A stretch of DNA of 64,000 bases from Azoarcus sp. KH32C (GTDB lineage Bacteria > Pseudomonadota > Gammaproteobacteria > Burkholderiales > Rhodocyclaceae). Every line of letters starts with the position of its first letter. Within the stretch, counting starts at the first letter, position 1. The notes below the pieces were generated by a model. That model did no database searches. It worked only from the letters and a program-made list of their open reading frames with translations, and had not been told where the DNA came from. The stretch covers positions 2,870,311-2,934,310 of the forward strand of contig NC_020516.1 in assembly GCF_000349945.1 (NCBI RefSeq), read 5' to 3'. A program made the translations under genes and the position numbers. This document shows, piece after piece, positions 9,350 through 59,510 of this stretch.

Positions 9350-9382
9350 TTTCGATCGAAGCCCTCCCCGGAAATAGCCACC

Positions 9383-17126: not shown

Positions 17127-19580
17127 ATGAGGAAAGCCAGCATGGGGGATCGAATTCGAGGGCGGGACGCGCCCATTGATGAGGGACCGCTGAGGCGGGG
17201 CAACGGCCTCGCCGTGCTGCGCTGCGTTACCTCGCTCATCGCCACGGCGAGCGACGAACGATCGCTACTGGAACAGGTGTGCAAGGCGGTCGTCGACGCT
17301 GCCGGCTATCGCTGCGCCTGGATCGGGTACGTCGATGAGGGACACGCAACGCTGCGACCGGCGGTGGCCTGGGGCTCGGGTCGCCTTGCCGACGGTCAGT
17401 TGAGCGTCATGACGGAGGGCGGCGAACAGCCTCCCGGGACCCTTTCGGCGCAAGGGACGCAGGTGCCGGCTGAGGCGGCGGTGCGCCTTCCTGCGCTCGA
17501 TGCGCGAGCGGCGTGCACTTCGCTGCAGGGCGCCGACGGAGAACTGCTGGCGGTGATTCCGTTGTGTGCCGGCTCGAACCCGCTGGGCGTGCTGCTGGTT
17601 CAGGAGGCCGGCATTCCCACGCTCGACGACGCGGAACTTGCCCTGCTGCGCGAGGCAGGCCGCGTCCTCGCGTACGGTATCGCTGCCTTGCGCTCCGCAG
17701 CCGAGCGCGCCCGAGCGGAGGCAGAGCTCGCGAGAATCGACCGCGCCCGGCGTACGCTGAGCGCGGGCAACCGCGCCCTGGTCCGCGCGACCGCGGAGCA
17801 GGTGCTCCTCGATGAAGTCTGCCGCATCAGCGTCGAAGAGGGCGGATATCGGGATGCCTGGGTGGCGTACCTGCGCCACGACGAGGACAAGAGCGTGGAG
17901 GTGATGGCCCAGTTCGGCGTCGATCGCGCCTACCTGGAGGGCCTGCGATGCAGCTGGGGGCCCAGCACGTCAGGCCGCGGGGCGGTGGGCATCGCCATCC
18001 GGACCGGACGCCCCAGCATCGGCCGCAACATCGCGGAAGACCCCGATCTCGCGCCTTGGCGTGACGAGGCGCTGCGCCGGGGCATCGCCGCGGTCAGCGC
18101 CTTTCCGCTGCGCGTGGACGGGGCGGTCATCGGGACCCTCGGATTGCACGCGAGCGACCCGGACGCCTTCAACCAGGCAGAGGAGGAATTGCTGAGCGAG
18201 CTCGCGGACGACCTTGCCTTCGGGATCGAGACCCTGCGCACGCGTGCGCGCTCCCGCGAGGCCGAGGCAGCGATCAAACGCCTGGCCGAGCAGGACGCCC
18301 TCACGGGGCTGCCCAACCGCTGGCGGCTGCGCAAGCGGCTGGACGACGAGATTGCCTCCTCGAAGCGTACGCACCGCTCGCTGGCGCTGCTTATGGTGGG
18401 TATCGACCAGTTTCAGGAGGTGAACGAGACGCTGGGCTACGAGCAGGGCGACGTCGTCCTGTCCGAGATTGCTGCGCGCCTGGCGCGTATCGCCGGCGAC
18501 TGCGCGAACATCGCGCGCATGGGTGAAGCCGAGTTCGCCATCCTGCTGCCGGACGGCGACGCGGCGAGCGCCGCACGAACGGGCCAGCGCATCCTCACGG
18601 CACTCCTCGAACCGGTGGAGGCCGGCGACGTCTTGCTGGATGCCAGCGGCAGCATCGGGATCGCCGTTTTCCCCGGGCACGGCTCGGAACCGGATGCACT
18701 TATCCGGCGCGCCAACGTGGCCATGCAGCAGGCGCGCCAGCAGGGCCAAAGGATGGCGCTCTACACCGGCGGACAGGACAAGGAGTGCGCGCGGCGGCTG
18801 GCGCTCATCGGCGACCTGCACCGGGCCATCGAAAGGAACGAACTGCGGCTCTACTGCCAGCCGAAGGTGCGCATCGCGGGTGGGGAAACCTGCGGCGCCG
18901 AAGCGCTGGTACGCTGGGAGCACCCACGGCTGGGCCTGATCCAGCCCAGCGAGTTCATCGCGCTGGCCGAGCGCACCGGCCTCATCAGTCCGCTTACCGA
19001 CTGGGTCATGCGGGCGGCCTTCCGCCAGGGCTATATGTGGCGCGATGCAGGGGTGCGTGTGCCGCTGGCGGTCAACGTCTCGGCCCGCGACCTGCGCGAT
19101 CCACGCCTCGTCGAGCGCGTGAGCTACCTGATGGCCACGTGGGGGGGTGAGCCCGATGCGGTGCAGTTCGAGCTCACAGAGAGTGCGCTGATGCACGATC
19201 CGCACGGTTGCCTGGAGAGCATGCGGCGCCTCAAAGACCTCGGCATCAAGCTCTTCATCGACGACTTCGGCACCGGTTATTCATCGCTGGCCTACCTCCA
19301 GAAGTTTCCGGTCGACGCCATCAAGATCGACCAGAGCTTCGTCCGCGACATGCTTTCGGATACCGACTCGGCGGTGATCGTGCGCTCCACGATCGATCTG
19401 GCCCACGACCTGGACCTGGAAGTCGTGGCCGAAGGCGTCGAAGACCGCCAGAGGTGGGACCATCTGGCCGAAGAAGGCTGCGATATCGCGCAGGGCTATT
19501 TCGTAAGCCAGCCCCTCCCGGCCGACACCTACCTCGCCTGGCGCGCTGACGCGACGATCGTCAAAGGACCGCTGCAGTAG
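17127..19580 (+). CDS. signalling protein with GAF domains, degenerate GGDEF domain and EAL phosphodiesterase domain
   Basis: 817 aa. The GGDEF site reads RMGEAEF (degenerate). EAL motif is present (AEALVRWEHP). DDFGTGYSSL and KIDQSFV are EAL signature motifs. Confidence 0.85.
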   Translation: MRKASMGDRIRGRDAPIDEGPLRRGNGLAVLRCVTSLIATASDERSLLEQVCKAVVDAAGYRCAWIGYVDEGHATLRPAVAWGSGRLADGQLSVMTEGGEQPPGTLSAQGTQVPAEAAVRLPALDARAACTSLQGADGELLAVIPLCAGSNPLGVLLVQEAGIPTLDDAELALLREAGRVLAYGIAALRSAAERARAEAELARIDRARRTLSAGNRALVRATAEQVLLDEVCRISVEEGGYRDAWVAYLRHDEDKSVEVMAQFGVDRAYLEGLRCSWGPSTSGRGAVGIAIRTGRPSIGRNIAEDPDLAPWRDEALRRGIAAVSAFPLRVDGAVIGTLGLHASDPDAFNQAEEELLSELADDLAFGIETLRTRARSREAEAAIKRLAEQDALTGLPNRWRLRKRLDDEIASSKRTHRSLALLMVGIDQFQEVNETLGYEQGDVVLSEIAARLARIAGDCANIARMGEAEFAILLPDGDAASAARTGQRILTALLEPVEAGDVLLDASGSIGIAVFPGHGSEPDALIRRANVAMQQARQQGQRMALYTGGQDKECARRLALIGDLHRAIERNELRLYCQPKVRIAGGETCGAEALVRWEHPRLGLIQPSEFIALAERTGLISPLTDWVMRAAFRQGYMWRDAGVRVPLAVNVSARDLRDPRLVERVSYLMATWGGEPDAVQFELTESALMHDPHGCLESMRRLKDLGIKLFIDDFGTGYSSLAYLQKFPVDAIKIDQSFVRDMLSDTDSAVIVRSTIDLAHDLDLEVVAEGVEDRQRWDHLAEEGCDIAQGYFVSQPLPADTYLAWRADATIVKGPLQ

Positions 19581-27127: not shown

Positions 27128-28183
27128 TCAGGCGGCGCCCGCGGACAATGCGTCGATGCGCCTTCGGAGCGTCGCGCACTCGTCGACGAATCGAGAGCGC
27201 ACATGCGCGAAATAATCTTCCCAGTCGTCGACGCTTCTCGCCTGACGATAGACGGTGTCGAGTTGGAGGGTCTGGATAGCAAGGATCAGGTCGGCAACCT
27301 GGTCCTGCAGGTCGCGGACGCGACTGCGCGCCGAGTGGTCGGTCGATGCGCTTGTGCTCGCCGTGGTGTCCTGGCGCGCGATGGAATCGGTTTCGAGTTC
27401 GCCCAGGAGACGCTGAAGTGCCGCCAGGTCGCTCCTGCGATAGGCTTCCTGGACGCTGAGAAAGGACTCGTGCGCCGCGTCCTTGTCGGTGTCGCCCACC
27501 CGGTCCGGATGGCAGCGCATGACGGCCGCGCGGTAGAGACGGCGCAGCTCGTCTTGTTCCTCTTCGTCCAGTTGCGCGGATGCCTGCCGTGAGGACTCCT
27601 CGACGGTCTTGTGAAAGGCGTCGCGTTCCTTCGCGGCCGCGCCCGCCTCTTCGCGGTCGGAAGCCGCGCCCGTTTGTTCGGCTCTCAGCCGGTAGTATTC
27701 GGCGCGCAGCATCAAGCATTCCTCGATCACCGTGCCCAAGGCCACGTACTGGGACTGCTGGAACTGGCACACCAGCCGCTGCATCTCCGCGAGCCGCACT
27801 GTGAGATCCCGCATCTGCCCTTGCAACATGACCGCACGGGCGATCAGCTTGTCCAGGTCCGCATCGGGCATATGCGCGACGGCGGCTTCGGCGGTGGCGG
27901 GTTCGGGGACTTCCTCGTCCTCGATTTCAGCGGATTCCGCGGGCAGGACTTCGAGCTCGGGCAGAAGCTCTTCCGACTTCGACGCTGGCTGCTGTTCCGG
28001 CTCGGCGGCAGGTCCAGGCTCTGCGACCTGCGGTTCGGGTTCGACGAGAGGCGGTGGAAGCTCGACAACGGCGGCTGCGGCCGTGGTCTCGTCTCGCTTG
28101 ATCTCAGGAGTCCGGCGCTCACCCTGGCCGAAGAAGGCGAGCATCGCGCCGCGGACGCGGTGAACGAAGGTCGATAGATTCAT
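27128..28183 (-). CDS. J-domain (DnaJ-like) protein with acidic Pro/Glu-rich N-terminal region
   Basis: 351 aa. C-terminal J-domain with HPD motif (LYRAAVMRCHPDRVGD...). N-terminal ~110 aa are low-complexity E/P/A-rich. Confidence 0.55.
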   Translation of the reverse strand: MNLSTFVHRVRGAMLAFFGQGERRTPEIKRDETTAAAAVVELPPPLVEPEPQVAEPGPAAEPEQQPASKSEELLPELEVLPAESAEIEDEEVPEPATAEAAVAHMPDADLDKLIARAVMLQGQMRDLTVRLAEMQRLVCQFQQSQYVALGTVIEECLMLRAEYYRLRAEQTGAASDREEAGAAAKERDAFHKTVEESSRQASAQLDEEEQDELRRLYRAAVMRCHPDRVGDTDKDAAHESFLSVQEAYRRSDLAALQRLLGELETDSIARQDTTASTSASTDHSARSRVRDLQDQVADLILAIQTLQLDTVYRQARSVDDWEDYFAHVRSRFVDECATLRRRIDALSAGAA

Positions 28184-28361
28184 GCCCGAATCGCGTCACC
28201 GTTTCGATGCCGCGCCCCCGAAAAGTGTCGACCTTAGCATTCTGACGGAATATCGGCCGCCAAGAGCGTCGATTCCGGTAAGGAAATGTCATCGGGGGAG
28301 GCCGTGGCGGGCCTGCGGAGGGCGACGCGTCGCACGGGATTGCGACGCGTCGTCGAAAGGC

Positions 28362-28958
28362 TTAGCTCGCGAGCCGGCGATCGGGGAAGTCGATCACCCG
28401 CGCCTGGTGCCGACGTTCCTGGAAGAACTGCTGCAGGCCGGTCTTGCCACGTGCCGGCGAGAAGCCGGTGAGCATCTGCATCTTGGTCTGCGCGGCGGTC
28501 ATGATGTCGAACCATGCGCGGAGCAAGACTTCCATGCGTGCGGCGCTTTCCGGGCTCAGCTGCGGCATCGTCTCGCTGTCCATGGCCTGACGGCGCGAGA
28601 TGTTGTCGATTGCGAGGTTCGCGGTCTCGTTCTGGATCTGGAGCAGCCGTTCCCGCAGCGACAGCAGCAGCGTGTTCATGACCATGATCGTCCGCATGCT
28701 CATGTTGCCGGCCGCTTCGCTGGCGTGTAGCGAGTCCGACCCTTCGGGCAACGGCGGGACGATCATCGACGCGCTCTCGCGCAGCCCGAGCGTCTCTTCG
28801 ATGCTTGCGATGGCGGCCTGCCAAGCTGTCGTTGCGCTGAGTTGTTGTTCCCAGGCCAAGCCGATGGTTTCCCTGCTCATTTCATCAAGGTTGAAAGGCG
28901 GGATGAATTCGTATTCCAGGGCATCGGTGTGGATGGTGTTCAGGTTCGTTGTCCTCAT
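28362..28958 (-). CDS. hypothetical protein
   Basis: Start chosen at MRTTNLNTIHTD, preceded by a GAGGAG RBS 8 nt upstream. ~198 aa with no recognised domain. Co-directional between rtcR and the J-domain gene. Confidence 0.4.
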   Translation of the reverse strand: MRTTNLNTIHTDALEYEFIPPFNLDEMSRETIGLAWEQQLSATTAWQAAIASIEETLGLRESASMIVPPLPEGSDSLHASEAAGNMSMRTIMVMNTLLLSLRERLLQIQNETANLAIDNISRRQAMDSETMPQLSPESAARMEVLLRAWFDIMTAAQTKMQMLTGFSPARGKTGLQQFFQERRHQARVIDFPDRRLAS

Positions 28959-29171
28959 GTTGCCGTCTCCTCGGTCTAGGTTTAACTCCGGATTGATGCC
29001 GCCGGTTGGAGCGAGTGGCTCCGTCCAGTACATCCGGAACGATGCAAATGTGCGACCGCCTCCGAACCCAAAGGAATCCCCAAGGCGGAAATCATTCCAG
29101 GTCAAACGATAGTCTGAAGTGTCCTCCCGACCTGTTACAAAATGATCACAGCCGTAACGGATCATCGCGTA

Positions 29172-30770
<1,599 letters not shown>

Positions 30771-30908
30771 GGTTTTATCTTTTCGGATAAGTAACTCGAT
30801 ACAAGTCTATATTCCGCGCCCTGGTCTCGCTCGCCAGGATTTCACACGAAGGGAAACAGTGCCGTCGTATCAACGGCTTCGCGATTCGTTCGACGATCGC
30901 CATGCCGC

Positions 30909-30924
30909 TGGCACGCCTCTCGCA
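30909..30924 (+). promoter_or_regulatory. sigma-54 (-24/-12) promoter: TGGCACG-N4-TCGCA
   Basis: TGGCACGCCTCTCGCA matches the TGGCACG-N4-TTGCW consensus with GG and GC correctly spaced. It is oriented towards the slipin-rtcB genes and opposite the EBP gene rtcR. Confidence 0.65.
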
Positions 30925-31052
30925 ATAGGTGAAGCGATCGCCGACGCGCTGCAATGGCCCACGGGCCGGGGCTGAAGACCCCGCCGGTGCGCGGGAGCCG
31001 GAGTCCGCTCTGTCGTTCCTGCGTATGCCGCCGCCGTGTGGATGCGATCGCC

Positions 31053-31171
31053 GTGCGGTCCCCTGGAGGGGGCAACCGGGTTCGATTCCCGGGCCGCACT
31101 CGATTGGATAGCTCAGTCGGTAGAGCAGCTGCGATAGCAGCCTGTCGCGGGTTCGACTCCCGCTCCAAACC
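31053..31171 (+). ncRNA. tandem tRNA-like structured RNA in the rtc operon leader (Y-RNA/YrlA-like candidate, not a decoding tRNA)
   Basis: Module 1 (31053-31099): 7-bp acceptor-like stem GTGCGGT/GCCGCAC, a small hairpin and a T-arm CCGGG-TTCGATT-CCCGG. Module 2 (31102-31171): acceptor stem GATTGGA/TCCAAAC (6/7 bp), canonical D-arm GCTC-AGTCGGTA-GAGC and T-arm GCGGG-TTCGACT-CCCGC. Its anticodon arm is a 5-bp stem with a GATA tetraloop, so no anticodon loop and no CCA. Lies between the sigma-54 promoter and the slipin gene. Confidence 0.5.
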
Positions 31172-31430
31172 TGTCCTGACACGACAGTTGATGCAGCAGT
31201 ACCCGCCGGTTGCGGTGTGCGCGAGCACCCGCCGCCGGTCCGCCCGGCCCCCGGCCCGCCCTCGCGGCAGGGCGTTCGGCAAGGCGGCAGATGGGTTCCG
31301 CCGCTCCCCGGTGCCTCGGCGCCGTGGAGTACCGGACCGCCGGCCCCCTGCCCTGCGCCTCCCCGCCCGTGTCGGCCGGTTGGCCCGACGGACCGGCGCC
31401 CGACCGGCAACAACAAAAAGGAGAACGAAA

Positions 31431-32570
31431 ATGTTGAAGCGATTCGTGGTGAAGAAAGACGAGCGTGGCGCACTGCTCCGGGAGGCGGACTTCGAGCGCA
31501 TCCTGAAATCCGGGCGCTACCGGTTTTTTGATCCGTTCGGCCGGCTCTCGCTCGTCACGTGGAAGGCGGACGCTCCGATGACCGATCTCGGGATCGTCGA
31601 CTACCTGCTTCAACATGAACCGGCGGTCGCCGCCGAGCATTTCGAACGGATGGAGCTGACCGAAGACCAGGCCGGCCTGCGTTACGAGAACGACGTGCTA
31701 GTCGAAATCCTGCCGCCGGCAGCCCGCCGCTTCGTGTGGAAGGGCGTGGTACGGCATCGACTGGAGACGGTCGACCTGCGCGCCGGCTACGCCGTGGCGC
31801 CGGAGGTCGCCGCGCACCTGGTCCAGCCGGCCTTGCGCGGACGCGCCGTGATGGGGCTCGGTTATCTGCTGCTTGCGCAGGTGCCGGCCTATCACGTCGG
31901 CGTGCTGAAGGTGGACGGAAAGGTGCAACGGCTGATGCCGGCGGGAGTCGAAGGGTTCTGGCGTTTCAACCGGGACATCCAGGTCGAACTGGTCGATACG
32001 CGGCTGCAGAACATGGAGGTCAGCGGCCAGGAGATCCTGTCGCGCGACAAGGTCGGGCTGCGGCTCAACCTCGCGGCGACCTGGCGTTACACCGACGTGC
32101 TGCTGGCGTACGAGAAGCTGAGCAAGCCGGCCGATCACCTGTACCGTGAACTGCAGTTCGGTTTGCGGGCCGCCGTCGGGACGCGGGCCATCGACGAGCT
32201 GCTGGAGAACAAGCAGACGATCGACGAGGTCGTGGGCGACTATGTGGCCCGCAAGCTCGACGGTTTCGGGATCGAGGTGAGCAGCGTCGGGGTGAAGGAC
32301 ATCGTGCTGCCGGGGGAGATGAAGAACATCCTCGCGCAGGTCGTGGAGGCCGAAAAGTCGGCCGAGGCGAACGTGATCCGGCGCCGCGAGGAAACGGCCG
32401 CGACGCGCTCGCTGCTCAACACCGCGAAGGTGATGGAAGACAACCCGACGGCGCTGCGCCTGAAGGAGCTCGAGACGCTGGAAAGGGTCGCCGAGCGGAT
32501 CGACCGGATCTCGGTGTTCGGAGGCCTCGACCAGGTGCTGAGCGGGCTCGTGAGTATCAAGAATGCGTGA
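31431..32570 (+). CDS. slipin / SPFH (band-7, stomatin-like) domain protein
   Basis: 379 aa with strong RBS AAAAAGGAGAA. C-terminal ~250 aa show SPFH-domain hallmarks (…KVGLRLNLAATWRY…IDELLENKQTIDE…EAEKSAEANVIRRREE…). Start of rtcB overlaps its 3' end. Confidence 0.75.
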   Translation: MLKRFVVKKDERGALLREADFERILKSGRYRFFDPFGRLSLVTWKADAPMTDLGIVDYLLQHEPAVAAEHFERMELTEDQAGLRYENDVLVEILPPAARRFVWKGVVRHRLETVDLRAGYAVAPEVAAHLVQPALRGRAVMGLGYLLLAQVPAYHVGVLKVDGKVQRLMPAGVEGFWRFNRDIQVELVDTRLQNMEVSGQEILSRDKVGLRLNLAATWRYTDVLLAYEKLSKPADHLYRELQFGLRAAVGTRAIDELLENKQTIDEVVGDYVARKLDGFGIEVSSVGVKDIVLPGEMKNILAQVVEAEKSAEANVIRRREETAATRSLLNTAKVMEDNPTALRLKELETLERVAERIDRISVFGGLDQVLSGLVSIKNA

Positions 32571-33795
32571 GAGAAAAATGGATTTCCAGTTGCTGGAAGT
32601 GGAAAACGGCAAGCCGATCAAGATGTGGACATCGGGCGTGCCGGTCGAGGACGAGGCGCGCCGGCAGTTGATGGCGACGGCCTCGATGCCCTTCATATAC
32701 AGGCACATCGCGGTGATGCCGGACGTGCATCTGGGCAAGGGATCGACGATCGGCAGCGTGATCCCGACCCGCGGTGCGATCATTCCCGCGGCGGTCGGCG
32801 TCGATATCGGCTGCGGGATGATCGCCGCCCGCACGACGCTGACGGCGAAAGATCTGCCGGACAACCTGCACCGCCTGCGGACCGCGATCGAACACGCGGT
32901 GCCGCACGGGCGCACCACCCCGCGCGCGGGCCGTGACGTCGGCGCCTGGGAGAGGACGCCGGCCGAGGTCGATGCGGCCTGGCGCGCGCTGCTGCCGGGC
33001 TTCAACCGCATCACGGAAAAGTATCCGAAGCTGAAGAACACGAACAACTACAAGCACCTCGGGACGCTCGGGACCGGCAACCATTTCATCGAGGTGTGCA
33101 TCGACGAGGAGGACCGCGTCTGGTTCATGCTGCATTCGGGGTCACGCGGCGTCGGCAATGCGATCGGCAACCTGTTCATCGAACTGGCGCAGGTGGACAT
33201 GCGCGAGCACCTCGCGAATCTGCCCGACCGCGATCTCGCGTACTTCAAGGAAGGCAGCAAGCATTTCGACGACTACGTCGAGGCGGTCGGCTGGGCGCAG
33301 GACTATGCGCGGCGCAATCGCGCGGTGATGATGCATCACGTCGTGGAGGCGGCCCGGTCGGTGATCGGGAAGGCTTTCGCGGCGGACGTCGAAGCCGTGA
33401 ACTGCCACCACAACTACGTCCAGCGCGAAACACATTTCGGCGCGGATATCTTCGTCACGCGCAAGGGAGCCGTTTCGGCGCGCAAGGGTGAGCTCGGCAT
33501 CATCCCGGGATCGATGGGCGCAAAAAGCTACATCGTCCGCGGACTCGGCAACGAGGAAGCGTTCTGCTCCTGCAGCCACGGTGCGGGACGGGTGATGAGC
33601 CGCAACGAGGCGAAGCGACGGTTCACGGTCGAGGATCAGGTCAGGGCGACGGCCCACGTCGAATGCCGCAAGGATCGCGACGTGATCGACGAGATCCCGA
33701 TGGCCTACAAGGACATCGACCGTGTGATGGAGGCGCAGCGCGAACTGGTCGAAGTCGTGCATACGCTGCGCCAGGTGGTGTGCGTGAAGGGCTGA
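32563..33795 (+). CDS. rtcB: RNA-splicing ligase RtcB
   Basis: 410 aa. Conserved RtcB motifs (DVHLGKGSTIGSV, GCGM, metal-binding His/Cys, NHNYV, GSMGAKSYIV, HGAGR). Confidence 0.9.
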   Translation: MRERKMDFQLLEVENGKPIKMWTSGVPVEDEARRQLMATASMPFIYRHIAVMPDVHLGKGSTIGSVIPTRGAIIPAAVGVDIGCGMIAARTTLTAKDLPDNLHRLRTAIEHAVPHGRTTPRAGRDVGAWERTPAEVDAAWRALLPGFNRITEKYPKLKNTNNYKHLGTLGTGNHFIEVCIDEEDRVWFMLHSGSRGVGNAIGNLFIELAQVDMREHLANLPDRDLAYFKEGSKHFDDYVEAVGWAQDYARRNRAVMMHHVVEAARSVIGKAFAADVEAVNCHHNYVQRETHFGADIFVTRKGAVSARKGELGIIPGSMGAKSYIVRGLGNEEAFCSCSHGAGRVMSRNEAKRRFTVEDQVRATAHVECRKDRDVIDEIPMAYKDIDRVMEAQRELVEVVHTLRQVVCVKG

Positions 33796-33907
33796 GGGCG
33801 CACGCATCGAAGCGTCTTGCCGTCACATTTCATTGTCACAAATCGGCAACTGAAATGTAACAGCACGGGACTAGGCTGCCGGGTTCCACTTTTCACCCGG
33901 TCGCCCG

Positions 33908-35980
33908 ATGCGTGCGTTGCGTTCATCCCTCCTCGGCAAATACCGCCTGCTGGTGCTGGCTGTTGCGGCGTTCTTCGCGCTCAGCGTCAGCGTGTACTCG
34001 CTCAACTTCCTGATGCTTCGCCAAGTCGACCTCGACGCGACGAGGATCAACGACGGCGGGAAGTTGCGCGGGTACTCGCAGCAGCTGGCGAAGGCGATCC
34101 TTACGCTCTCCCACGAGTCGTCGCAGGGCGAGCCGATCCAGACCAGCCAGGCGCAGATTTCGGAAGCCGTCCTGGCCTTCGATCAGTCGCTCACGGAAAT
34201 TCGCAGTTTGGCGAGCGAGGACCACGACCCGACCGAGCAGCAACTGTTGGACGAGATCGATAAGCAATGGACGCCGCTGCGCGATGCGGCGAACGCGCTG
34301 ATCGGCGAGCGACCATTCAGCGAAACGGACGTGCAGGCCACCTTCACGCTCAGCGACACGCGGAACGTGCGTCTGTTGCAGCTCGCGGGCGACCTGACCC
34401 AGCACCAGGAGGCCCTTGCAGCCGAGCGGGCGCAGTCGATGCGTTACCTGCAGTTCGGCGCGATCGGGCTCGCGCTGCTCAATTTCCTCTACATCGTCGT
34501 CCACGTCTTCCGCAGTCTGCGCCGCAGCGACCGCGAGGCCGAGCAGGCGCGCCGCGAAACCGACGACATCCTGCGCACGGTGCGCGAGGGGCTCTTCCTG
34601 ATGCATCGGGACGGCACGGTCGGGACGCAGCGCTCGGCGCATCTCGCGAAGGTGTTTCCGCAGCCGCTGGCGCCCGGACACAACTTCCTGACGATGCTCG
34701 CGACGCTGGTCTCCGACGAAACGATGCAGTCGGTCCGGCAGTACGTGGAGCTGCTGTTCAACGAACGGGTGAAACCGGCCTTGCTGGCGGACCTTAATCC
34801 GCTGAATCGCGTCGAGATCGCGCCACAGGGACGCGGCCGGACGATGCACCTGAACTTCGGCTTCCATCCGGTGCGCGGCGAAGGCGGCACGGGGATCGAC
34901 GCCCTCCTCGTCGCGGCCGTCGACGTCAGCCAGGAGGTGCGGCTGGAGCAGGAGCTGGCGGGCGCCGAGGAGCGCGCGCGCAACGAGGTTTCGCTGCTGC
35001 TTGGCGTGCTGGAGAACGAGCCGGCGGAGGTGATGCGCTTCCTCGCCGAGGCGAAAGCAAGGCTAGAACGGGCGAACGGCGTGCTGCGGGACGTGCCGGT
35101 CGAAGTCGGCGCCTATCTCGCGGCCGTCACGCGAGTGTTCCGGGAAGTTCACACGATCAAGGGCGAGGCTGCGGCGCTGTCGATGGGCACCGTCGCCGCC
35201 CAGGCGCACGAGTTCGAGGACGTCCTCACGGCGCTCGTCAAGCGGCGGAATCTCGGCGGCGACGACCTGATCCCGGTCGCGACCGGCATTGGCCATCTGA
35301 TGCAAGAGCTGGCGAAAGTCGATGCCGTGGTCGGGCGGATCGGCGCCTTCACGCGTGTCGCCCCGGGACGGGACACTTCCGCCGCCGACGTGGCAGGCAA
35401 GGACGCAAGCGCCGACGACTGCGTCTACCAGTCGATGCAGCGCATCCAGCGCTTCGCCCTGTCGGTTGCGGCCGAGCTCAACAAGAAGCTGCGCGTCGAG
35501 ACCTCCCTGCCCCACGTCGAGGATGTGCCGGCGTCCGTGCACCGCGTGCTGCGCGAGGGACTGCCGCAGCTCGTTCGCAATGCGGTCGTGCACGGCATCG
35601 AAAGTGCCGACGAGCGCCGCCTTGCGGGCAAGCAGGAGGAAGGCCGGTTGCGCATCGAGTTTCAGCGCACTGCCGATGGCGGACTCGAACTGACGGTCGC
35701 CGACGACGGCCGCGGGATCGATGTCGCGGCCTTGCGGCGGCATCTCGTCGACGCCGGCTATCGCGATGCCGACGCAGTCCAGGCGATGAGCGATCGCGAG
35801 GTCGTCGCGACGCTCTTCGAGCCGGGCGTGTCGACTGCGGCGAGCGTCACCGAGCATGCGGGCCGCGGCGTTGGCCTGGATGCGATCAGCGCGCTCGCAC
35901 GCGAGACCGGCGCGCGGCTGAAGCTCGCCTCCACCCCGCGCACCTACACGCGCTTCACCCTTCAATGGAGCCCGACATGA
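33908..35980 (+). CDS. membrane-anchored CheA-like sensor kinase (periplasmic sensor, Hpt domain, CheA-type HATPase; no CheW-like P5 domain)
   Basis: 690 aa. Two TM segments (aa ~14-36 and ~196-217) flank a ~160 aa periplasmic region. Hpt motif FREVHTIKGEAA. CheA N-box LVRNAVVHGIE and G-boxes (DDGRGID, GRGVGLD). Protein ends right after the ATPase domain. Confidence 0.7.
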   Translation: MRALRSSLLGKYRLLVLAVAAFFALSVSVYSLNFLMLRQVDLDATRINDGGKLRGYSQQLAKAILTLSHESSQGEPIQTSQAQISEAVLAFDQSLTEIRSLASEDHDPTEQQLLDEIDKQWTPLRDAANALIGERPFSETDVQATFTLSDTRNVRLLQLAGDLTQHQEALAAERAQSMRYLQFGAIGLALLNFLYIVVHVFRSLRRSDREAEQARRETDDILRTVREGLFLMHRDGTVGTQRSAHLAKVFPQPLAPGHNFLTMLATLVSDETMQSVRQYVELLFNERVKPALLADLNPLNRVEIAPQGRGRTMHLNFGFHPVRGEGGTGIDALLVAAVDVSQEVRLEQELAGAEERARNEVSLLLGVLENEPAEVMRFLAEAKARLERANGVLRDVPVEVGAYLAAVTRVFREVHTIKGEAAALSMGTVAAQAHEFEDVLTALVKRRNLGGDDLIPVATGIGHLMQELAKVDAVVGRIGAFTRVAPGRDTSAADVAGKDASADDCVYQSMQRIQRFALSVAAELNKKLRVETSLPHVEDVPASVHRVLREGLPQLVRNAVVHGIESADERRLAGKQEEGRLRIEFQRTADGGLELTVADDGRGIDVAALRRHLVDAGYRDADAVQAMSDREVVATLFEPGVSTAASVTEHAGRGVGLDAISALARETGARLKLASTPRTYTRFTLQWSPT

Positions 35981-36348
35981 AAGCGAGACTGCTGATCGTC
36001 GATGATTCGATGGTGATCCGGAACCTGATCGCCCGCCAGATGCTCGACGAGCGCCTGCCGCCGATGGACGTTGTCGGGCTGGCGGCCGACGGCGAGCAGG
36101 CGCTGGCGATCGCGCTGTCGAAGCACCCCGACTTCATCACGATGGATCTGACGATGCCCAACATGGACGGCGAGGCCTGCATCGAACGCCTCGCGGCGGT
36201 GCTGCCGAGCGCCAGGATCATGGTGGTGTCCGCCCTCAGCGACAAGACGACGGCGCTGCGCGCCATCAGCAAAGGCGCCCACGGCTTTCTGCACAAACCC
36301 TTTACCGACGAACAACTGGTCGCCGCCCTGCTGGAGTTGATGAGTTGA
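35965..36348 (+). CDS. CheY-like response regulator (receiver domain only)
   Basis: LLIVDDS, phospho-acceptor D in FITMDLTMPNMDG and a conserved Lys. Start may instead be the ATG at 35977 (MKARLL), which overlaps the upstream stop. Confidence 0.85.
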   Translation: MEPDMKARLLIVDDSMVIRNLIARQMLDERLPPMDVVGLAADGEQALAIALSKHPDFITMDLTMPNMDGEACIERLAAVLPSARIMVVSALSDKTTALRAISKGAHGFLHKPFTDEQLVAALLELMS

Positions 36349-36818
36349 ACTACCGCGCGCTGAATCACGAAGACATCGAAGTGTTCTCCGAGGCGATCTC
36401 CGCCTTCTTCCTCAACATGACCCACGAGCCGGCCATGGTGCGCACGGCCTACATGCTGGAGGGGAGCACTCCGCCGCTCTGGGGCGATTTCAACGGGGTG
36501 ATCGAGGTCTCAGGCGGCTTTCGCGGCAGCATTACCTTCTCGGCCCCGGGGGGGATGCTCGGGCAGGTGCTCGACGTCATGGGAGAAAGGGAGCAGTCGG
36601 CCGACCGCTGCCTGGACGTGGTCGGCGAGATCGCCAACATGATGTCAGGGCGGGCGCGTCGCCATTTCGGCGAGGATCTGACGATCGCGCCGCCGAAAGC
36701 CTGCCTTCGCTCTGCGCGGCACACGCTGCCCGGTGCGAGCGGGACCCCGTACGCAATTCCGTTGCGCTGGCGGACCTTCGAGGCCAACCTGGTCGTGCAC
36801 CTGGACATCCGCCGATAG
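36345..36818 (+). CDS. CheX-like chemotaxis phosphatase
   Basis: 157 aa. CheX/CheC-family motif (DVVGEIANMMSGRA). Start overlaps the upstream stop. Confidence 0.65.
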   Translation: MNYRALNHEDIEVFSEAISAFFLNMTHEPAMVRTAYMLEGSTPPLWGDFNGVIEVSGGFRGSITFSAPGGMLGQVLDVMGEREQSADRCLDVVGEIANMMSGRARRHFGEDLTIAPPKACLRSARHTLPGASGTPYAIPLRWRTFEANLVVHLDIRR

Positions 36819-51059: not shown

Positions 51060-52676
51060 TCAGCGCCGGAAGCGCGAGACCAGCTCGCGCAAGGTCCCGG
51101 CATGGTTGTGGACGTTGCTCGCCATCTCCTCTCCGCGCTGCGCGGCGTGAGTGTTGATGTCGCTCTTCTGAACCAGGCGCTCGACGTTCTCGGCGATCAG
51201 CGTGCTCGCCTTGGCCTGTTCGCGCGCTGCGTCCGACACGTCGATGAGGTTCCCCAGCGCCACGGACGCCGAGCGCTGCAACTCATCGAGCGGATCCTGC
51301 AGGTCGTGCATCAGTTTCACGCCGGACCCCAACTGCTGCGTGGCGTCATCCATCTGCTTGACGGCCGCTTCCGTCTGATCGCGGATCGCCTCGATCATGA
51401 CGTTGATCTCCGTCGTCGAAGAACTCGTCCGCTCCGCGAGTTTGCGCACTTCGTCGGCGACCACCGCGAAGCCGCGGCCCTGCTCGCCGGCCCGCGCGGC
51501 CTCGATGGCGGCATTGAGCGCCAGCAGGTTGGTCTGGCCGGCAATTTCGCGGATCACGTCGACGATGTGGCTGATCCGTTGCGAGGTTTCCTGCAGTCGA
51601 TGGATCGTATCGCCCGTTGCCGACACGTCGGCCGCGATCTTGTTGATCTCGGCCACGGCTTCGTCGACGAGCGACTTTCCGGTCTCCGCAACGCTCACCG
51701 TCCGCTCGGCGACCGTCCGCGCGTTTTCAGCGTTGTCCGACACATGCGTGATGCTCACGCTCATCTCCTCCACGGCCGCCGCGATCGCGTTCAGCGACTC
51801 GCTCTGCTCCTGCACGCAGCGCGTGATCTCCGCAGCGGCCGACGACATCCCGCCCGCGGAGTCGCCCAGCGCGTCCGCACTGCCCGCCATGCTGCCGATG
51901 ATGCGCCGCAGGTTTTCCTGCATGCGTTGCAGCGACCGCAGCAGGTCGCCGATCTCGTCGCGGCCGGCCGAAGCGAATTGCGCGCCGAGGTCGCCGCCGG
52001 CAATGCGTTCGGCGACGACCGAGGCCTCGCGAACGGGACGCGCGATGCTGCGGGCCATCAGGAACGCGCTCACCGCAGCCCCGGCAAGCGCGAGCACCAG
52101 CGTCGTGGCGACCACCAGCCGCGCCTGGGAATATGCGGCCGCGGCATTGTCATAGTCGGACTTGCTGATCCGCTGTTCGGCCTGCACGAGCTCGTCGGTC
52201 AGCGAGTCGAGAACCTTGAAATAGTCGTCCGCCGTCTGCAGCGCGGAGCGCCCCATGTTGATGTCGCTGTCCGCAAGGTCGATCGCCTGGGAGACGCTCT
52301 TGCGGTACTTGGCGATCTGCGCAGCGATCTTTTCTCCAAGCGCCCTTTCATCGGCAGCAAGGTCCGGCTTCGCCATCCAGGTGTCGAACTTCGCGACAAC
52401 CCGCCCGAGTTCATCATCCGCCGCCTTGCCATCCTTCTGCAGCTGCGGCGAGCCGGAAAGATCCGCCCACATCAGCAAACGGTATGCACGGGCGTGACTC
52501 TCGAGGACGTCGGACCTGACTTCCTCCGCGGTCTGGAGGTATTGCTGTCGGACGTTGAACAGATCGTCGAGAACCTCGCGCTGGGTGCTCATCGTCAAAT
52601 GGCCGGCGACGGCCAGCAACAACAGAAAAACCAAGGTGATCGCCGGCGCCACCAGAGCTTTCTGGTACAGGTTCAT
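51060..52676 (-). CDS. methyl-accepting chemotaxis protein
   Basis: 538 aa. Two TM segments, HAMP domain and the highly conserved MCP signalling hairpin (…[20 protein letters not shown]…). Confidence 0.9.
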
Positions 52677-53323: not shown

Positions 53324-54811
53324 ATGCGACTCGACTTCATCCGGGTCAAGTACGCGTCCAGCCGTCAGCGGATAATGTCGTGCTGCCTCCTCCGCGCCGG
53401 AACCGACGTGAACCTCTACGACCGCCTCGCCCTCGACATCGAACAACGCATCCGCGACGGCGTACTGCGCGCCGGTGAGCGCCTGCCCTCGGTGCGCAAG
53501 GCCTGCGAATCGCAGCGCCTGAGCCCCTCGACGGTCCTCAAGGCCTACTACCTGCTCGAAAGCCGCGGCCTGATCGAAGTTCGGCCGCAATCCGGCTACT
53601 ACGTCGGCCCCCGCGCCCTGGGCGCCCTCCCCGAGCCGCGGATGACGCACCCCGTCGGCGCCTCCACCGCACTGCAGGTCAGCGACTTCATCTTCGAGAT
53701 CCTCGAAGCGGTCAAGGACCCCGCCGTCGTACCGCTCGGATCGAGCTTCGCCAGCCCCTACCTCTATCCGCTCGACAAGCTCGGCCGTTTCCTCGCCGCC
53801 GCCGCGCGCCACATGGACCCGCGCGCCACCGTCACCGACCTGCCGCCCGGCAACGACGAACTGCGCCGCCAGATCGCGCTGCGCTACCTCGCCGGCGGCG
53901 TCGCCCTCGCACCCGGCGAAATCGTCATCACCACCGGCGCGATGGAAGCCCTCAACCTCTGCCTCGAAGCCGTCACCCAGCCCGGCGACCTCGTCGCGGT
54001 CGAATCCCCCACCTTCCACGCCGGCCTGCAGATGATCGAACGGCGCGGCCTCAAGGTCATCGAGATCCCCACCCACCCGCGCGACGGCGTCAGCCTTGCC
54101 GCCCTCGCCGACGCGCTGCGCCACCACCCCGTCAAGGCCTGCCTGCTGATGCTCAACTTCCAGCATCCGATGGGCAGCCTCGTCCCGGACGACAACCGCC
54201 GCGCCCTCCTCGACCTTCTGCGCCACCACGACGTCCCGCTGATCGAAGACGACACCTACGCCGAACTCCACTTCGACCGCCACGCCCCGCTCGCCACCAA
54301 GGCCCTCGACAGCACCGGCCTCGTGCTCCACGTCTCCAGCTTCTCCAAAAGCCTCGCCCCCGGCTACCGCGTCGGCTGGGTCGCCGCCGGCCGCTACGCC
54401 CAGAAGATCCAGAGGCTGAAGCTCTCCGCGAGCCTCGCCACCACCATCCCAGTCCAGATCGCCATCGCCGACTTCCTCAAGCAAGGCGCCTTCGACACCC
54501 ACCTCCGCCGCCTGCGCAGCGCCCTCGAAGTCCAGGAAGCCGCGATGGCCGCGGCGATCGAACGCTACTTTCCCGCGGGCACCCGCCTCACCCGGCCGCG
54601 CGGCGGCTATTTCGTGTGGGTCGAACTACCCCCGAACTGCGACGCCCTCGCCCTCCATCGGCGCGCGCTGGATGAAGGGATCAGCCTTGCGCCGGGGCCG
54701 ATCTTTTCGGCGAAGCGGGAGTATGGGAACTGCATTCGGCTGAATTTCGGGCATCCGTGGACGGAGGAGATCGAGCGGGCGGTGAGGCGGTTGGGGGAGA
54801 TGTTGCGGTAA
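53324..54811 (+). CDS. MocR-like GntR-family regulator fused to an aminotransferase class-I/II domain
   Basis: N-terminal GntR wHTH (LYDRLALDIEQRIRDGVLRAGERLPSVRKACESQRLSPSTVLKAY) plus a ~350 aa PLP-aminotransferase-fold domain (SFSKSLAPGYRVGW). Confidence 0.85.
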   Translation: MRLDFIRVKYASSRQRIMSCCLLRAGTDVNLYDRLALDIEQRIRDGVLRAGERLPSVRKACESQRLSPSTVLKAYYLLESRGLIEVRPQSGYYVGPRALGALPEPRMTHPVGASTALQVSDFIFEILEAVKDPAVVPLGSSFASPYLYPLDKLGRFLAAAARHMDPRATVTDLPPGNDELRRQIALRYLAGGVALAPGEIVITTGAMEALNLCLEAVTQPGDLVAVESPTFHAGLQMIERRGLKVIEIPTHPRDGVSLAALADALRHHPVKACLLMLNFQHPMGSLVPDDNRRALLDLLRHHDVPLIEDDTYAELHFDRHAPLATKALDSTGLVLHVSSFSKSLAPGYRVGWVAAGRYAQKIQRLKLSASLATTIPVQIAIADFLKQGAFDTHLRRLRSALEVQEAAMAAAIERYFPAGTRLTRPRGGYFVWVELPPNCDALALHRRALDEGISLAPGPIFSAKREYGNCIRLNFGHPWTEEIERAVRRLGEMLR

Positions 54812-55200
54812 GGGATGCGTCGGTCGGCTACCTCGCCGCGTGGTCCCCGCCTCGGTCCGGGCAGCCAAGCGTTGTTGCCGTTGGTGTGCCACGCGAAGGA
54901 CCGCTCCATGAGACCCTCCGACGGGCGAATACGAACCACAAGAGGCGATTGATGTCCCCCCGAGGGGACATCCAAACCCCCTAGTAGTATGCTATGCAGT
55001 TGAAACGCCGCTTTTCAAGGATATCTATTCGCAGGAATACCATTCCCGGCCGCATCGGAAGCGTTGAACGGCAATCCAATCCGTGTGGATGTTTTGACAA
55101 TCCAGAGTTCGGTAGACTCGACGCGAAGTTGGGGCGTAAAACTGAATCCCGATAACAAAGTTAGAACTACATCATCTTAACCGTTGATCTGACACAGAAT

Positions 55201-56280
55201 ATGAATTCAATTCTTGTAACGGGACTAGCTATTGGTTCAGAGCCTGAAATTGACGCTTGCTCTGCCTGCAATTATGACTTGTCTTGGCTTTTCGAGCACC
55301 CATCCACATTGCTTTGGGCAGACAAGATTATCGTCACCGAAGGAATTAAGAACGCAATTGATGGTGAGTATTTTGCTCATGTAGACAAGCCGGAGTTTTC
55401 CAAGGGATTAAAGACAATTTTTGAAATTCTTCAGGATGCAGGCTTGCTCGATGTCAGGAAAGCGGCAAACGTCATTACCCCAACGGTGCGGGATTCACTT
55501 TATGAGCAGATTGAACTTGATCGAAAACTGATGTGCGAGGTCTTTCCTAAGGATACTAGGCTCGCCGCTGACTCTGGTGTCCCTGGTCAGTTTTTCGTCC
55601 ACGATTACGAGTACTGCACGCCAGCCTTGTGGTCTGTTTATGCGTCGCTTCATTTAGCGGACACGTGGGACACAAACGTTCTCTTCTCGCCGAACGTATA
55701 CAACTATCTTCGATACAAATTCGGTTTGCAATCCGATCTCCTAAAGTCGGCCTCCCAACTCACCGCGTTCGAAAAAGTATTTTCTTCGTTTGTCCCGGAA
55801 ACCCCCCTTCTCCCTTCGTACTTTATCGACACCCAGTGTGGCACCTGCACGACCGAGAAAACTTGTCGGTCCAATGCGCTGCCCAATCTCGAGGCAAACT
55901 TGCGGAAGATTTTGGCGTGGCGGGATTACGACGAGTTTCATGAAATGCGAAAAGTTTTCGATGATCTTTCGAAGAAGCGCCGAGAATGCGTCGACCCCAC
56001 TGAACTGATAGCTGAATTTGAGCAGCGCGAATCTAAGCTTCAGCGCAGAATTAATGGCGTTTTTCCAAAGATCGAACGCTGGACAAACTTGGCGTCGGTT
56101 GTCGCAATCCCCGTTGCTCTAGGAGGCGTCACTTCCGGCTCGACTCTTCTTGCGTCATCTGCTGGAGCAATCGCGGGGCTGGCCGAGGTCTCTAAGAAAT
56201 ACATGGAGATCACGAAGAATCGCTATCGATGGCTTGGCTTCCGCAATAAGGCGGTAAAAGACGCAGCGTCGAAGAAGTAA
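55201..56280 (+). CDS. hypothetical protein (no recognisable domain; C-terminal hydrophobic segment)
   Basis: 359 aa ORF in a ~48% GC island. Cys cluster CSACNYD near the N-terminus. Predicted TM-like stretch WTNLASVVAIPVALGGVTSGSTLLASSAGAIAGLA near the C-terminus. Confidence 0.45.
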   Translation: MNSILVTGLAIGSEPEIDACSACNYDLSWLFEHPSTLLWADKIIVTEGIKNAIDGEYFAHVDKPEFSKGLKTIFEILQDAGLLDVRKAANVITPTVRDSLYEQIELDRKLMCEVFPKDTRLAADSGVPGQFFVHDYEYCTPALWSVYASLHLADTWDTNVLFSPNVYNYLRYKFGLQSDLLKSASQLTAFEKVFSSFVPETPLLPSYFIDTQCGTCTTEKTCRSNALPNLEANLRKILAWRDYDEFHEMRKVFDDLSKKRRECVDPTELIAEFEQRESKLQRRINGVFPKIERWTNLASVVAIPVALGGVTSGSTLLASSAGAIAGLAEVSKKYMEITKNRYRWLGFRNKAVKDAASKK

Positions 56281-56433
56281 TCGAGTGTGCGTGAGCAGTC
56301 GGGGACTCAAGGGGGCTTTTCTTGGCGTCATTCATTTCCGGTGTCTCCGATCTCGCGCTCGATTTCGATTCGTCGGTGGACGGGCAGGGGGAGTCCATTT
56401 CATCCCTTATGTGTCACAAGAGGTCCTAGCGTA

Positions 56434-57138
56434 ATGACATTCGAAGAGTGGCTCACTCATCAAGGACTGTCCCTGTCGTCGGTGAGCAAGTATGAAGCGG
56501 CGATTCGCGGCGCGATCAGCGAATGGGCAATGGACAACGACATTGTTGCCGGCCCTCTCACTTCAATTGTGAGTCCCTCAGCGTTTGGCGCCATAGCTGC
56601 GCGAGTCAGGGCTCTGCCGATTTACCAGGAACGGAATGAGCGCGGCCACAATATGTATAACAGTGCGCTTGCGAAGTTCGCAGAATACCTCTCCGAGTCG
56701 AAAGGTGGAGATCTTGAATCCGACGTCGATGACATTTTGCAGTCAAAAGAGGTCGGGGATACCGAGAAAGCTAACCTCATTAAGTCGAGAATCGGCCAGG
56801 GAACGTTCCGTCAGAAGGTCGTGGCTTACTGGGCTCGCTGTGCGGTAACCGGCTTCAAAGACCCAGCCTTTCTGGTTGCCTCGCATATTAAGCCTTGGCG
56901 AGCCTCAAAAAACTCCGAGCGATTGGACCCGTTCAACGGATTGCTGCTCTTGCCGAACATCGATAAAGCTTTTGATGGGGGCTACATTACGTTTGCTTCC
57001 GATGGGAAAATCATCATCTCCCCCCAACTCCCGGAGCCGTCGGTGCTCGGAATCTCCGAGGAAATGCATGTGACCCTCGACCGGCGCCATCAAGTCTTTA
57101 TGGATTTCCATCGATCTTCGGTCTTTCGCGCCACCTGA
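56434..57138 (+). CDS. HNH endonuclease (HNH_2 / PF13391-like) domain protein
   Basis: Start MTFEEWLTHQ with AAGAGGT RBS. C-terminal motif CAVTGFKDPAFLVASHIKPWRASKNSERLDPFNGLLLLPNIDKAFDGGYITF is the characteristic HNH_2 nuclease signature. Low-GC island. Confidence 0.7.
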   Translation: MTFEEWLTHQGLSLSSVSKYEAAIRGAISEWAMDNDIVAGPLTSIVSPSAFGAIAARVRALPIYQERNERGHNMYNSALAKFAEYLSESKGGDLESDVDDILQSKEVGDTEKANLIKSRIGQGTFRQKVVAYWARCAVTGFKDPAFLVASHIKPWRASKNSERLDPFNGLLLLPNIDKAFDGGYITFASDGKIIISPQLPEPSVLGISEEMHVTLDRRHQVFMDFHRSSVFRAT

Positions 57139-57245
57139 CATGACGTTGCAGCAGACGCCCGAAACCGGGGCGTTCTTCGAACAGGCCACGTGGTGCGGGC
57201 GGCCTGAATTTCACGTTAGCTTTTAACGGACGATCACTCGCCCCA

Positions 57246-58163: not shown

Positions 58164-58199
58164 CGGTTTAGTGACCCCCTGAACTATCATGGAAAATAA

Positions 58200-59141: not shown

Positions 59142-59510
59142 CCTTACCCCGTTGAGTCCCCATCAGGGTGGCCGATATTGCGGTGCAATGTGCCGCCTTG
59201 TGGTCGGCGCAATTGCCGCGGCGTGTGTAGAGAATAGCCTAAAGGGAGGGTGATGTTGCAAGCCATTGGATCGCCCCTGTGAGTACGGCGTCTGTGGGCA
59301 AAATTTGCCAAATTTGGATAGTCGTGGATCGGCGGTTCTGATTGGTGGCCGCCCTACCCCGCGCCTATCGCCGAAGTCATAGGCTCGGAGCGCTTTCCGA
59401 GCCGATCTGAAAAATGCCGATATCGGATAGCGCGAAATCGCCGCGATTTTTAACTTACGTCTCACGCTGCGGCAGATGTCCTGGCGCAGGTGAGCACCGT
59501 AAGGGAATCT

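Follow-up and report, generated by a model that had tools for sequence, protein, structure and literature searches.

Can the catalytic parts of CheA be placed under the direct command of a membrane-bound ligand-binding domain, with no chemoreceptor array in between, and what would such a kinase control? The question is raised by three overlapping genes in the 64,000-nucleotide stretch analysed here (the window), a piece of the chromosome of Azoarcus sp. KH32C (Rhodocyclales; genome 66% guanine plus cytosine, GC), which encode a sensor kinase, a CheY-like receiver and a CheX-type phosphatase (Table 1). The original prediction, drawn from the DNA letters alone, had described them as a minimal, membrane-bound, CheA-like phosphorelay downstream of rtcB that could be co-transcribed with it from a sigma-54 promoter. 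Our reading, at a probability of roughly 0.7, is that the three genes constitute an autonomous three-protein phosphorelay independent of any chemoreceptor array. The residues for ATP binding, for phosphorylation of His and Asp and for CheX catalysis are all conserved, and the genes are co-inherited. The parts of the cassette and their chemistry are all familiar; open-access papers and bioRxiv yielded no account of their combination.

The case begins with the catalytic core of the kinase, which has a 100% match in NCBI, protein P0001 of Azoarcus sp. KH32C, annotated only as "ATP-binding protein" and begun there three codons downstream of the start of the 690-residue open reading frame (ORF), giving 687 residues. 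A CheA-type Hpt (P1) and a CheA-type ATPase, both claimed in the original prediction, are recovered by Pfam and by profile comparison, the ATPase also by structural and hhalign comparisons. Pfam places Hpt at residues 377–451 (34.5 bits; cutoff 24.6) and HATPase_c at residues 551–686 (47.4 bits; cutoff 26.4). A profile built from 43 family members and compared with all PDB sequences matches E. coli CheA over P1 (residues 10–100, E 1e-8) and P4 (residues 322–506, E 4e-39) and nothing of its P2, P3 or P5, and its match to the P4 chain of T. maritima CheA (1i58_A) reaches E 3.5e-47. In the AlphaFold2 model, superposition of the ATPase on CheA P4 domains of known structure (1i58 and its relatives) gives template-modelling scores of 0.80–0.85 and root-mean-square deviations of 2.5–3.8 Å. 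Within the Hpt, which stands N-terminal to the ATPase as in CheA, H415, K418, H434 and E437 align at the same spacing with H48, K51, H67 and E70 of E. coli CheA, the His-Lys-His-Glu hydrogen-bond network around the phospho-accepting His of P1; H415, K418 and E437 do not vary across the family, where at least 90% of sequences keep H434. The ATPase has the CheA-specific N box (LVRNAVVHGIE, residues 555–565), G1 box (DDGRG, 599–603) and G2 box (GRGVG, 652–656), in which N558, H562, G563, I564 and E565, then D599, D600, G601 and G603, and finally G652, G654 and G656 are invariant; the catalytic motifs do not vary across the 43 sequences, at 27–74% identity.

Could a dimerisation domain have been overlooked, given that P3 of CheA is often missed by HMMER (PMC10542144)? 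At E ≤ 0.01, Pfam finds in the kinase no HisKA family, H-kinase_dim, P2 or CheW, and the NCBIfam CheA equivalog models match residues 511–686 only, far under their cut-offs. When hhalign is run against five canonical CheAs, P4 alone aligns (probability 100%, E 1e-46), the alignment starting just past canonical P3 and stopping where the CheW domain begins; the kinase itself ends three residues past P4. Hpt and ATPase are joined by an 18-residue tether, with a predicted local distance difference test score (pLDDT) below 50 at residues 484–499, and since such a tether is too short for the P3 hairpin of about 60 residues, the kinase has no P3. Nor does a dimeric DHp hairpin stand directly before the ATPase, as it would in a class I sensor kinase. 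A hidden HisKA/DHp or P3 was considered and ruled out by Pfam, the PDB profile, hhalign and the model, which leave the tether only. The idea of a standard two-component kinase whose HisKA/DHp has gone undetected, of a CheA remnant in decay or of a faulty assembly gains from the fact that P3 and DHp helices often escape HMMER, as noted for CheA P3 (PMC10542144), and loses to the 18 disordered residues between Hpt and P4, too few for a two-helix hairpin, to the profile–profile alignment of P4 alone, to motifs invariant in 43 sequences (27–74% identity), to a third-position GC (GC3) of 0.86 and to the recurrence of the architecture in more than 100 independent assemblies; we consider it highly improbable. 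That recurrence also speaks against a misassembled N-terminus, and the domain scan proposed earlier for an ordinary HisKA two-component kinase, once run, returned no HisKA, in agreement with the predicted lack of HisKA and P5.

The whole protein contains two hydrophobic segments only (19-residue Kyte–Doolittle windows above 1.6 at residues 7–37 and 180–204), both in its N-terminal part, and a Pfam PilJ match at residues 36–134 (40.8 bits; cutoff 26.6; E 2.5e-10), which together bear out the periplasmic sensor with two transmembrane helices. Searched against the PDB as a single sequence, the sensor domain gave nothing useful; the sole solved match of the 43-member profile for this part is 6gcv, the nitrate-binding PilJ domain that forms the ligand-binding domain of McpN (E 3e-4). 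The model (mean pLDDT 85.4) renders the sensor as an all-helical, PilJ-family four-helix bundle (pLDDT 85–95) with its two transmembrane helices, followed in order by an alpha/beta domain, a helix, the Hpt, the disordered stretch and the ATPase. Modelled alone, the alpha/beta domain (residues 226–340; pLDDT 87.6) forms a five-stranded antiparallel sheet with flanking helices, and its best PDB matches by Foldseek are PAS domains or PAS-containing sensor kinases, among them FixL (E 4e-6), FlrB, CitA PASc, Rv1364c and LOV domains. Pfam detects no PAS in the KH32C kinase and gives weak PAS_4 matches in 5 of 25 relatives. The non-catalytic residues that are best conserved in the family lie in this region (E227, G228, L229, L231, P298, L299 and D339, the first three invariant). 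Taken whole, the kinase model can be aligned along some 495 columns to PAS-DHp-CA kinases, among them YF1 (4gcz), LOV-FixL chimeras and 8a7f. Because the PAS fold is found and the model aligns in this way, the modelled layout is that of an ordinary sensor kinase whose dimeric DHp has been swapped for a monomeric CheA-type Hpt. The system is therefore less minimal than the original prediction had it, which missed both the PAS domain and the long connecting helix.

How, then, should the kinase be classified? In a survey of 13,673 CheA sequences, P3 and P5 were present in every one, and CheA was described as being without a sensor domain (PMC10542144). The KH32C kinase has the P1-type Hpt with its phospho-accepting His and the CheA-type HATPase_c (P4); it has neither H-kinase_dim (P3) nor the CheW-like P5, and it has a sensor of its own. 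Since it is without P3, without P5 and with its own sensor domain, it is not a CheA by the published definition (Berry, Andrianova & Zhulin, PMC10542144). It shares with CheA a partnership with a CheY-like receiver and a CheC/CheX-family phosphatase, and differs in having no P2 either, in adding a two-transmembrane periplasmic sensor and a PAS domain, and in having no CheW, MCP, CheR or CheB associated with it. From the other side, NarX/NarQ (sensor-TM-HAMP-GAF-DHp-CA, where TM stands for transmembrane), FixL and YF1 likewise lead from a transmembrane or transmission module through a His-bearing helical bundle to an ATPase, the PAS-DHp-CA chimeras 4gcz and 8a7f superpose overall on the kinase model, and NarX/NarQ further share the periplasmic four-helix sensor, a motif resembling the P-box or N-box and the two transmembrane helices. 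Class I kinases differ, however, in having a dimeric DHp where the KH32C kinase has a monomeric CheA-type Hpt and a CheA-type ATPase, and in their intrinsic phosphatase activity, which the KH32C kinase is expected to lack, a lack that would account for CheX; NarX/NarQ also have HAMP-GAF in place of PAS and signal to a NarL-type transcription factor rather than to a single-domain receiver. A review of nitrate-sensor kinases covers DHp-containing architectures only. McpN (PA2788), the nitrate chemoreceptor of P. aeruginosa, has the same PilJ-family ligand-binding domain, and its exact N-box occurs in 20 of 138 members of the kinase family; McpN, however, is a methyl-accepting chemotaxis protein (MCP) that signals via CheW and CheA, whereas the KH32C sensor, whose box agrees at 6 of 10 positions, is fused straight to the kinase. 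CheA3 and CheA4 of Rhodobacter (Cereibacter) sphaeroides, a split kinase, illustrate that CheA P1 and P4 can work outside the single-chain five-domain layout, but both keep P5 and belong to a chemoreceptor cluster, CheA4 keeps P3, and neither has a membrane sensor. On this comparison, the kinase works like a hybrid of CheA and a class I kinase.

The 127-residue receiver is a single Response_reg domain (86.4 bits, residues 10–122) without an output domain, for which CheY proteins and the CheB receiver are the closest relatives of known structure; the acidic pocket, phospho-accepting Asp, Ser and Lys of a CheY-like response regulator (D13, D14, D61, S89 and K111) are 99–100% conserved in 75 orthologues from related loci, and F108 lies at the position of Y106 in E. 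coli CheY. The third protein (157 residues) matches Pfam CheX at 57 bits (cutoff 27) and can be aligned with solved CheX structures through the active-site helix GEIxNM; its D-x3-E-x2-N...P motif (D91, E95, N98 and P117) is 100% conserved in 73 orthologues. It is a CheX with an intact active site and predicted phosphatase activity. A stand-alone CheY and a CheX in overlapping genes are thus found as foreseen, and the ORF list places all three reading frames on the plus strand at the coordinates given earlier. Kinase and receiver overlap by 16 nucleotides and receiver and CheX by 4, and GC3 is 0.86–0.88 in the three ORFs, as is usual for real genes of a 66% GC genome. The TGA stop of the kinase (35978–35980) shares bases with an in-frame ATG of the receiver, its second, at 35977 (ATGA, 35977–35980), as does the stop of the receiver with the TTG start of cheX (TTGA). 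Since the stop and start codons overlap in this manner, the gene arrangement suggests that kinase, receiver and CheX are translationally coupled.

Table 1. Features of the kinase–receiver–CheX cassette, in nucleotide positions of the window and, where applicable, in residues of the encoded protein.
Feature	Position	Strand	Residues or length	Basis or remark
rtcB-kinase spacer	33796-33907	+	112 nt	possible own promoter or operator
Sensor kinase	33908-35980	+	690 aa	ORF list
Transmembrane helix 1	33938-34012	+	aa ~11-35	Kyte-Doolittle; helical in model
Periplasmic PilJ/NarX-type four-helix sensor	34013-34447	+	aa ~36-180	Pfam PilJ, profile match, model
Degenerate N-box/P-box INDGGKLRGYSQ	34046-34081	+	aa 47-58	motif comparison with McpN
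Transmembrane helix 2	34448-34522	+	aa ~181-205	hydrophobicity; helix 139-221 in model
Cytoplasmic PAS domain	34583-34927	+	aa 226-340	model and Foldseek; Pfam silent for the KH32C sequence
Connecting helix, PAS to Hpt	34928-35014	+	aa 341-369	unbroken helix in both models
CheA-P1-type Hpt four-helix bundle	35021-35356	+	aa 372-483	Pfam Hpt; His415 codon 35150-35152
Disordered 18-residue tether	35357-35410	+	aa 484-501	model; replaces P2 and P3
CheA-P4-type ATP-binding domain	35411-35968	+	aa 502-687	profile, structure, hhalign
CheY-like receiver	35965-36348	+	127 aa	123 aa if started from ATG at 35977
CheX-type CheY-P phosphatase	36345-36818	+	157 aa	TTG start

Are these three genes a unit? 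Seven contig look-ups, for homologues of 29–67% identity, gave 10 loci, all 10 with the order kinase, receiver, CheX, usually overlapping, and none with rtcB nearby. A scan of one genome per GTDB species added 80 further loci, bringing the total to 90 related loci; the order is kept in 78 of the 90 (68 of the 80 species-representative loci), and most of the remaining 12 are truncated contigs or distant matches. The self-contained module of the original prediction is thereby a co-inherited unit. A first, word-indexed search had yielded about 100 clusters, mostly of Rhodocyclales, while a profile of the PAS domain and helix, run against 1.84 billion representatives, retrieved 624 clusters (50% identity) at E ≤ 1e-30 and 1,370 at E ≤ 1e-10; by the core of the family, at least 624 clusters, we mean the former threshold and clustering. 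Among 10 representatives scanned, 9 have Hpt with HATPase_c and none has CheW or H-kinase_dim; their N-termini range from one or two PilJ domains through an unrecognised sensor to almost nothing. Members are named at present "ATP-binding protein", "Hpt domain-containing protein" or, wrongly, "CheA", and open-access papers and bioRxiv yielded no description of the family, though one may exist elsewhere; the original prediction had called the input and output of such kinases largely unexplored.

We propose the following course of events. The sensor, transmembrane and PAS parts would supply the dimerisation that P3 gives CheA, and ligand binding in the periplasm would be relayed via transmembrane helix 2, the PAS domain and the connecting helix to alter how easily the tethered P4, whether in cis or in trans, phosphorylates His415, with the Hpt in the role that DHp has in ordinary sensor kinases. 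The phosphoryl group would then pass from His415 to Asp61 of the CheY-like receiver, which, because it has no output domain, would act by binding a protein target. CheX, through E95 and N98, would strip the phosphate from the receiver and so permit fast reset; that Hpt-type kinases presumably have no phosphatase activity of their own would explain why CheX is co-inherited and always present.

To what would such a receiver bind? One possibility is an auxiliary input into flagellar chemotaxis, in which the CheY-like protein binds FliM or drains phosphate from the main Che pathway, so that the ligand biases swimming without MCP, CheW or adaptation enzymes. The receiver is indeed closest, among solved structures, to CheY proteins and the CheB receiver, its F108 corresponds to Y106 of E. 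coli CheY, CheX elsewhere serves chemotaxis as a phosphatase, and many host genera, including Aromatoleum/Azoarcus, Cellvibrio, Rhodoferax and Polaromonas, are presumably flagellated. In KH32C itself, an orphan MCP (4HB_MCP_1-HAMP-MCPsignal; 51060–52676, minus strand) lies 14 kb from the cassette with no che genes around it and suggests a conventional chemotaxis system elsewhere in the genome. A scan of 29 ORFs around the cassette, from 11 to 55 kb of the window, gave no CheW, CheR or CheB, so that of the earlier claim that CheW, CheR, CheB and MCP are all missing nearby, the first three items stand and the last must be qualified by this orphan MCP. The family, however, extends well beyond swimming bacteria. 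Its hosts are beta- and gammaproteobacteria: Rhodocyclaceae, Comamonadaceae, Thiobacillus, Cellvibrio, Lysobacter and Steroidobacteraceae, and also Psychrobacter, Moraxella, Faucicola, Neisseria (musculi, wadsworthii, dentiae), Kingella and Cardiobacteriaceae. The hosts from Psychrobacter to Cardiobacteriaceae we take to be without flagella, and the same cassette with its conserved residues is present in Psychrobacter, Moraxella, Neisseria and Kingella. For Psychrobacter in particular, a genome study reports cheY and cheX in 16 of the strains it analysed and other chemotaxis and flagella-assembly genes in none of its strains (PMC4754876), which runs counter to a flagellar role. Neighbourhood clustering, moreover, brought out no recurrent flagellar or che gene. 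We therefore regard accessory flagellar input as unlikely; because members occur in non-flagellated genera, the output of the receiver is in general not solely the flagellar motor.

The same clustering gave lineage-specific neighbours only and no conserved fourth gene that might serve as the output. An "ABC transporter" neighbour cluster (14 loci) was set aside as a mix of unrelated ABC ATPases. In 20 loci, mainly of Steroidobacteraceae and other gammaproteobacteria, a TonB_C gene of about 600–680 codons lies directly upstream on the same strand (e.g., L007 4958–6994, with Pfam TonB_C, and L037 4109–5923, in which a receiver-like N-terminus and a likely membrane segment can be discerned by eye); its product is a candidate lineage-specific partner or target. 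In Psychrobacter, an SBP_bac_3 (amino-acid-type) periplasmic binding-protein gene precedes the cassette by a median of 43 nucleotides, a second CheX paralogue follows it (kinase-CheY-CheX-CheX) and the kinase sensor is not PilJ, as in L056 5086–9574 (Psychrobacter pacificensis) and 10–11 other Psychrobacter/Moraxellaceae loci. Phosphate genes flank some cassettes, with ppk and ppx upstream and pstSCAB-phoU-phoBR downstream in L005 and L006 (Rhodocyclaceae), a PstS-like gene in L008 and PhoU_div in L009; the association is not general.

What might the kinase sense? The N-box [IVL][ND]xAGxQRML[ST]Q marks nitrate-binding PilJ domains, and R61 within the box of McpN hydrogen-bonds nitrate (PMC6381276). 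The KH32C box agrees at 6 of the 10 specified positions and so falls short of the strict nitrate N-box; its G51 and R54 correspond to G58 and R61 of McpN, both of which contact nitrate (PMC6381276). Among 138 full-length members, 20 have the strict N-box, 87 the relaxed G-x-x-R-x-x-x-Q and 31 another sensor; the strict boxes are found in Cellvibrio, Rhodoferax, Thiobacillus and others, and none in the KH32C clade. For the strict subfamily, the motif makes nitrate very likely as the ligand, and support comes from a Thiobacillus sp. metagenome-assembled genome, in which the kinase with the strict N-box INLAGRQRMLSQ, CheY and CheX are followed by an adjoining NrtA-like NMT1_2 gene (L022 4122–8839; E 1e-108). 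In the Azoarcus/Aromatoleum clade, two close homologues of the KH32C kinase (P0012 and P0015, 66% and 63% identity) carry Ala or Gly where the N-box has its Arg, so the Arg appears not to be strictly constrained there. Nitrate is a possibility for the KH32C kinase as well, as judged from its box; as an assignment it was rejected, the N-box being degraded and the Arg lost in the two homologues. The input of the kinase is probably a small periplasmic ligand.

Does the position beside rtcB carry meaning? The two genes lie on the same strand, with rtcB at 32563–33795, no gene in between and the 112-nucleotide gap that had been reported. A scan of this spacer revealed no intrinsic terminator and no sigma-70 consensus; its predicted fold has two hairpins (−44.4 kcal/mol, z −2.8) and lacks a U-tract. 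On these grounds the cassette could be imagined as part of the Rtc RNA-repair regulon, co-transcribed with a tRNA-like RNA, the Band 7 gene and rtcB from an RtcR/sigma-54 promoter and signalling or answering RNA damage, and a sigma-54-like TGGCACGCCTCTCGCA does occur at 30909–30924, between rtcR and the operon. Such patterns are nevertheless at chance level in the window (2 found vs 1.6 expected), and a periplasmic sensor fits cytoplasmic RNA damage poorly. Searched for by tblastn, RtcB, RtcR and the Band 7 protein turn up in none of the 90 related loci (6–8 kb flanks where the contig allowed), and in Azoarcus sp. DN11, the closest complete genome (67% identity), the kinase is preceded by a divergent gene, which means that the cassette there needs a promoter of its own. 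A role in the Rtc regulon is thus improbable, the rtcB/sigma-54 link suggested at first finds no support, and by gene order the place of the cassette beside rtcB looks like a KH32C-specific accident. The one other neighbour searched for, PpnN, which in KH32C is encoded two genes downstream, is found by tblastn, among the 90 loci, only in Azoarcus sp. DN11 (L001 and L002, same gene order), directly after CheX. Within the spacer lie, at 33827–33862, an 8-bp inverted repeat, ACATTTCA-N18-TGAAATGT, and a 9-mer, AATGTAACA, placed 53 nucleotides before the kinase start in KH32C and 59 nucleotides before it in Azoarcus DN11 (L001 ~7940), and TGT[CA]AC elements occur 50–86 nucleotides upstream in several Rhodocyclales loci; these could be an operator or promoter element, a weak lead without statistical support.

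Several observations weigh against the autonomous phosphorelay or narrow it. Autophosphorylation without P3, phosphotransfer to the receiver and CheX activity are predicted from conserved residues and gene order. With no terminator between rtcB and the kinase, Rtc-dependent read-through is possible in KH32C. The 6-of-10 box and the missing Arg of P0012 and P0015 argue against nitrate as the ligand in the KH32C clade.

The surroundings of the cassette offer observations of their own. The Rtc locus (29172–33795) is unusual: it has rtcR (minus strand) divergent from a Band 7/SPFH gene (31431–32570), whose end overlaps the start of rtcB by 8 nucleotides, and rtcA does not follow rtcB. Between the sigma-54-like sequence and the Band 7 gene and rtcB lies a tRNA-like element (31076–31171, plus strand; Rfam tRNA at 46 bits, weak YrlA, i.e., Y RNA-like), which ARAGORN reports as "tRNA-???" with an aberrant anticodon and which has T-arm-like GGTTCGAnTCC sequences at ~31082 and ~31150; the scan of nearby ORFs gave no Rsr/Ro gene. 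The element is probably a Y-RNA-like or tRNA-like RNA belonging to the Rtc operon. Directly downstream of rtcR and on the same strand (27128–29165, minus), a gene for a 267-residue protein with no Pfam match (28362–29165) is accompanied by one for a 351-residue acidic, Pro/Glu-rich protein (27128–28183, minus) with a marginal J-domain (26.5 bits, under the Pfam cutoff of 27.8); both may be co-transcribed with rtcR. A GAF-GAF-GGDEF-EAL protein of 817 residues, a cyclic di-GMP turnover enzyme, is encoded 14 kb upstream of the cassette (17127–19580, plus strand). The GC fraction falls to 0.57 at 8001–10000 and 0.53–0.59 at 54001–60000, vs about 0.66 elsewhere in the window, and these segments may have been horizontally acquired.

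What would the cassette mean for the family as a whole? Tentatively, and with more doubt than confidence, we suggest that it represents an undescribed, widespread class of "one-piece" chemosensory kinases, in which a transmembrane ligand-binding domain gates P1–P4 without arrays, CheW or methylation. Output would be fast and non-transcriptional, through a CheY/CheX pair that is obligatory, and since it would also work in non-motile bacteria its target would lie outside the flagellum; direct sensing of nitrate would belong to one subfamily, and the family would be either an intermediate between DHp kinases and CheA or a CheA derivative reverted to direct sensing. The family breaks the rules described for CheA as the one histidine kinase that does not sense by itself and always has P3 and P5 (PMC10542144), yet it keeps the catalytic chemistry of CheA. 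With a single ligand-binding domain in control of a P1–P4 kinase, the gating between P4 and P1 becomes testable without reconstituted receptor arrays, and the subfamily with the strict N-box offers a concrete ligand, nitrate, as an experimental starting point. The family would account for the "orphan" cheY and cheX of non-motile Psychrobacter, and the cassette points to a putative target of CheY outside the flagellar motor.

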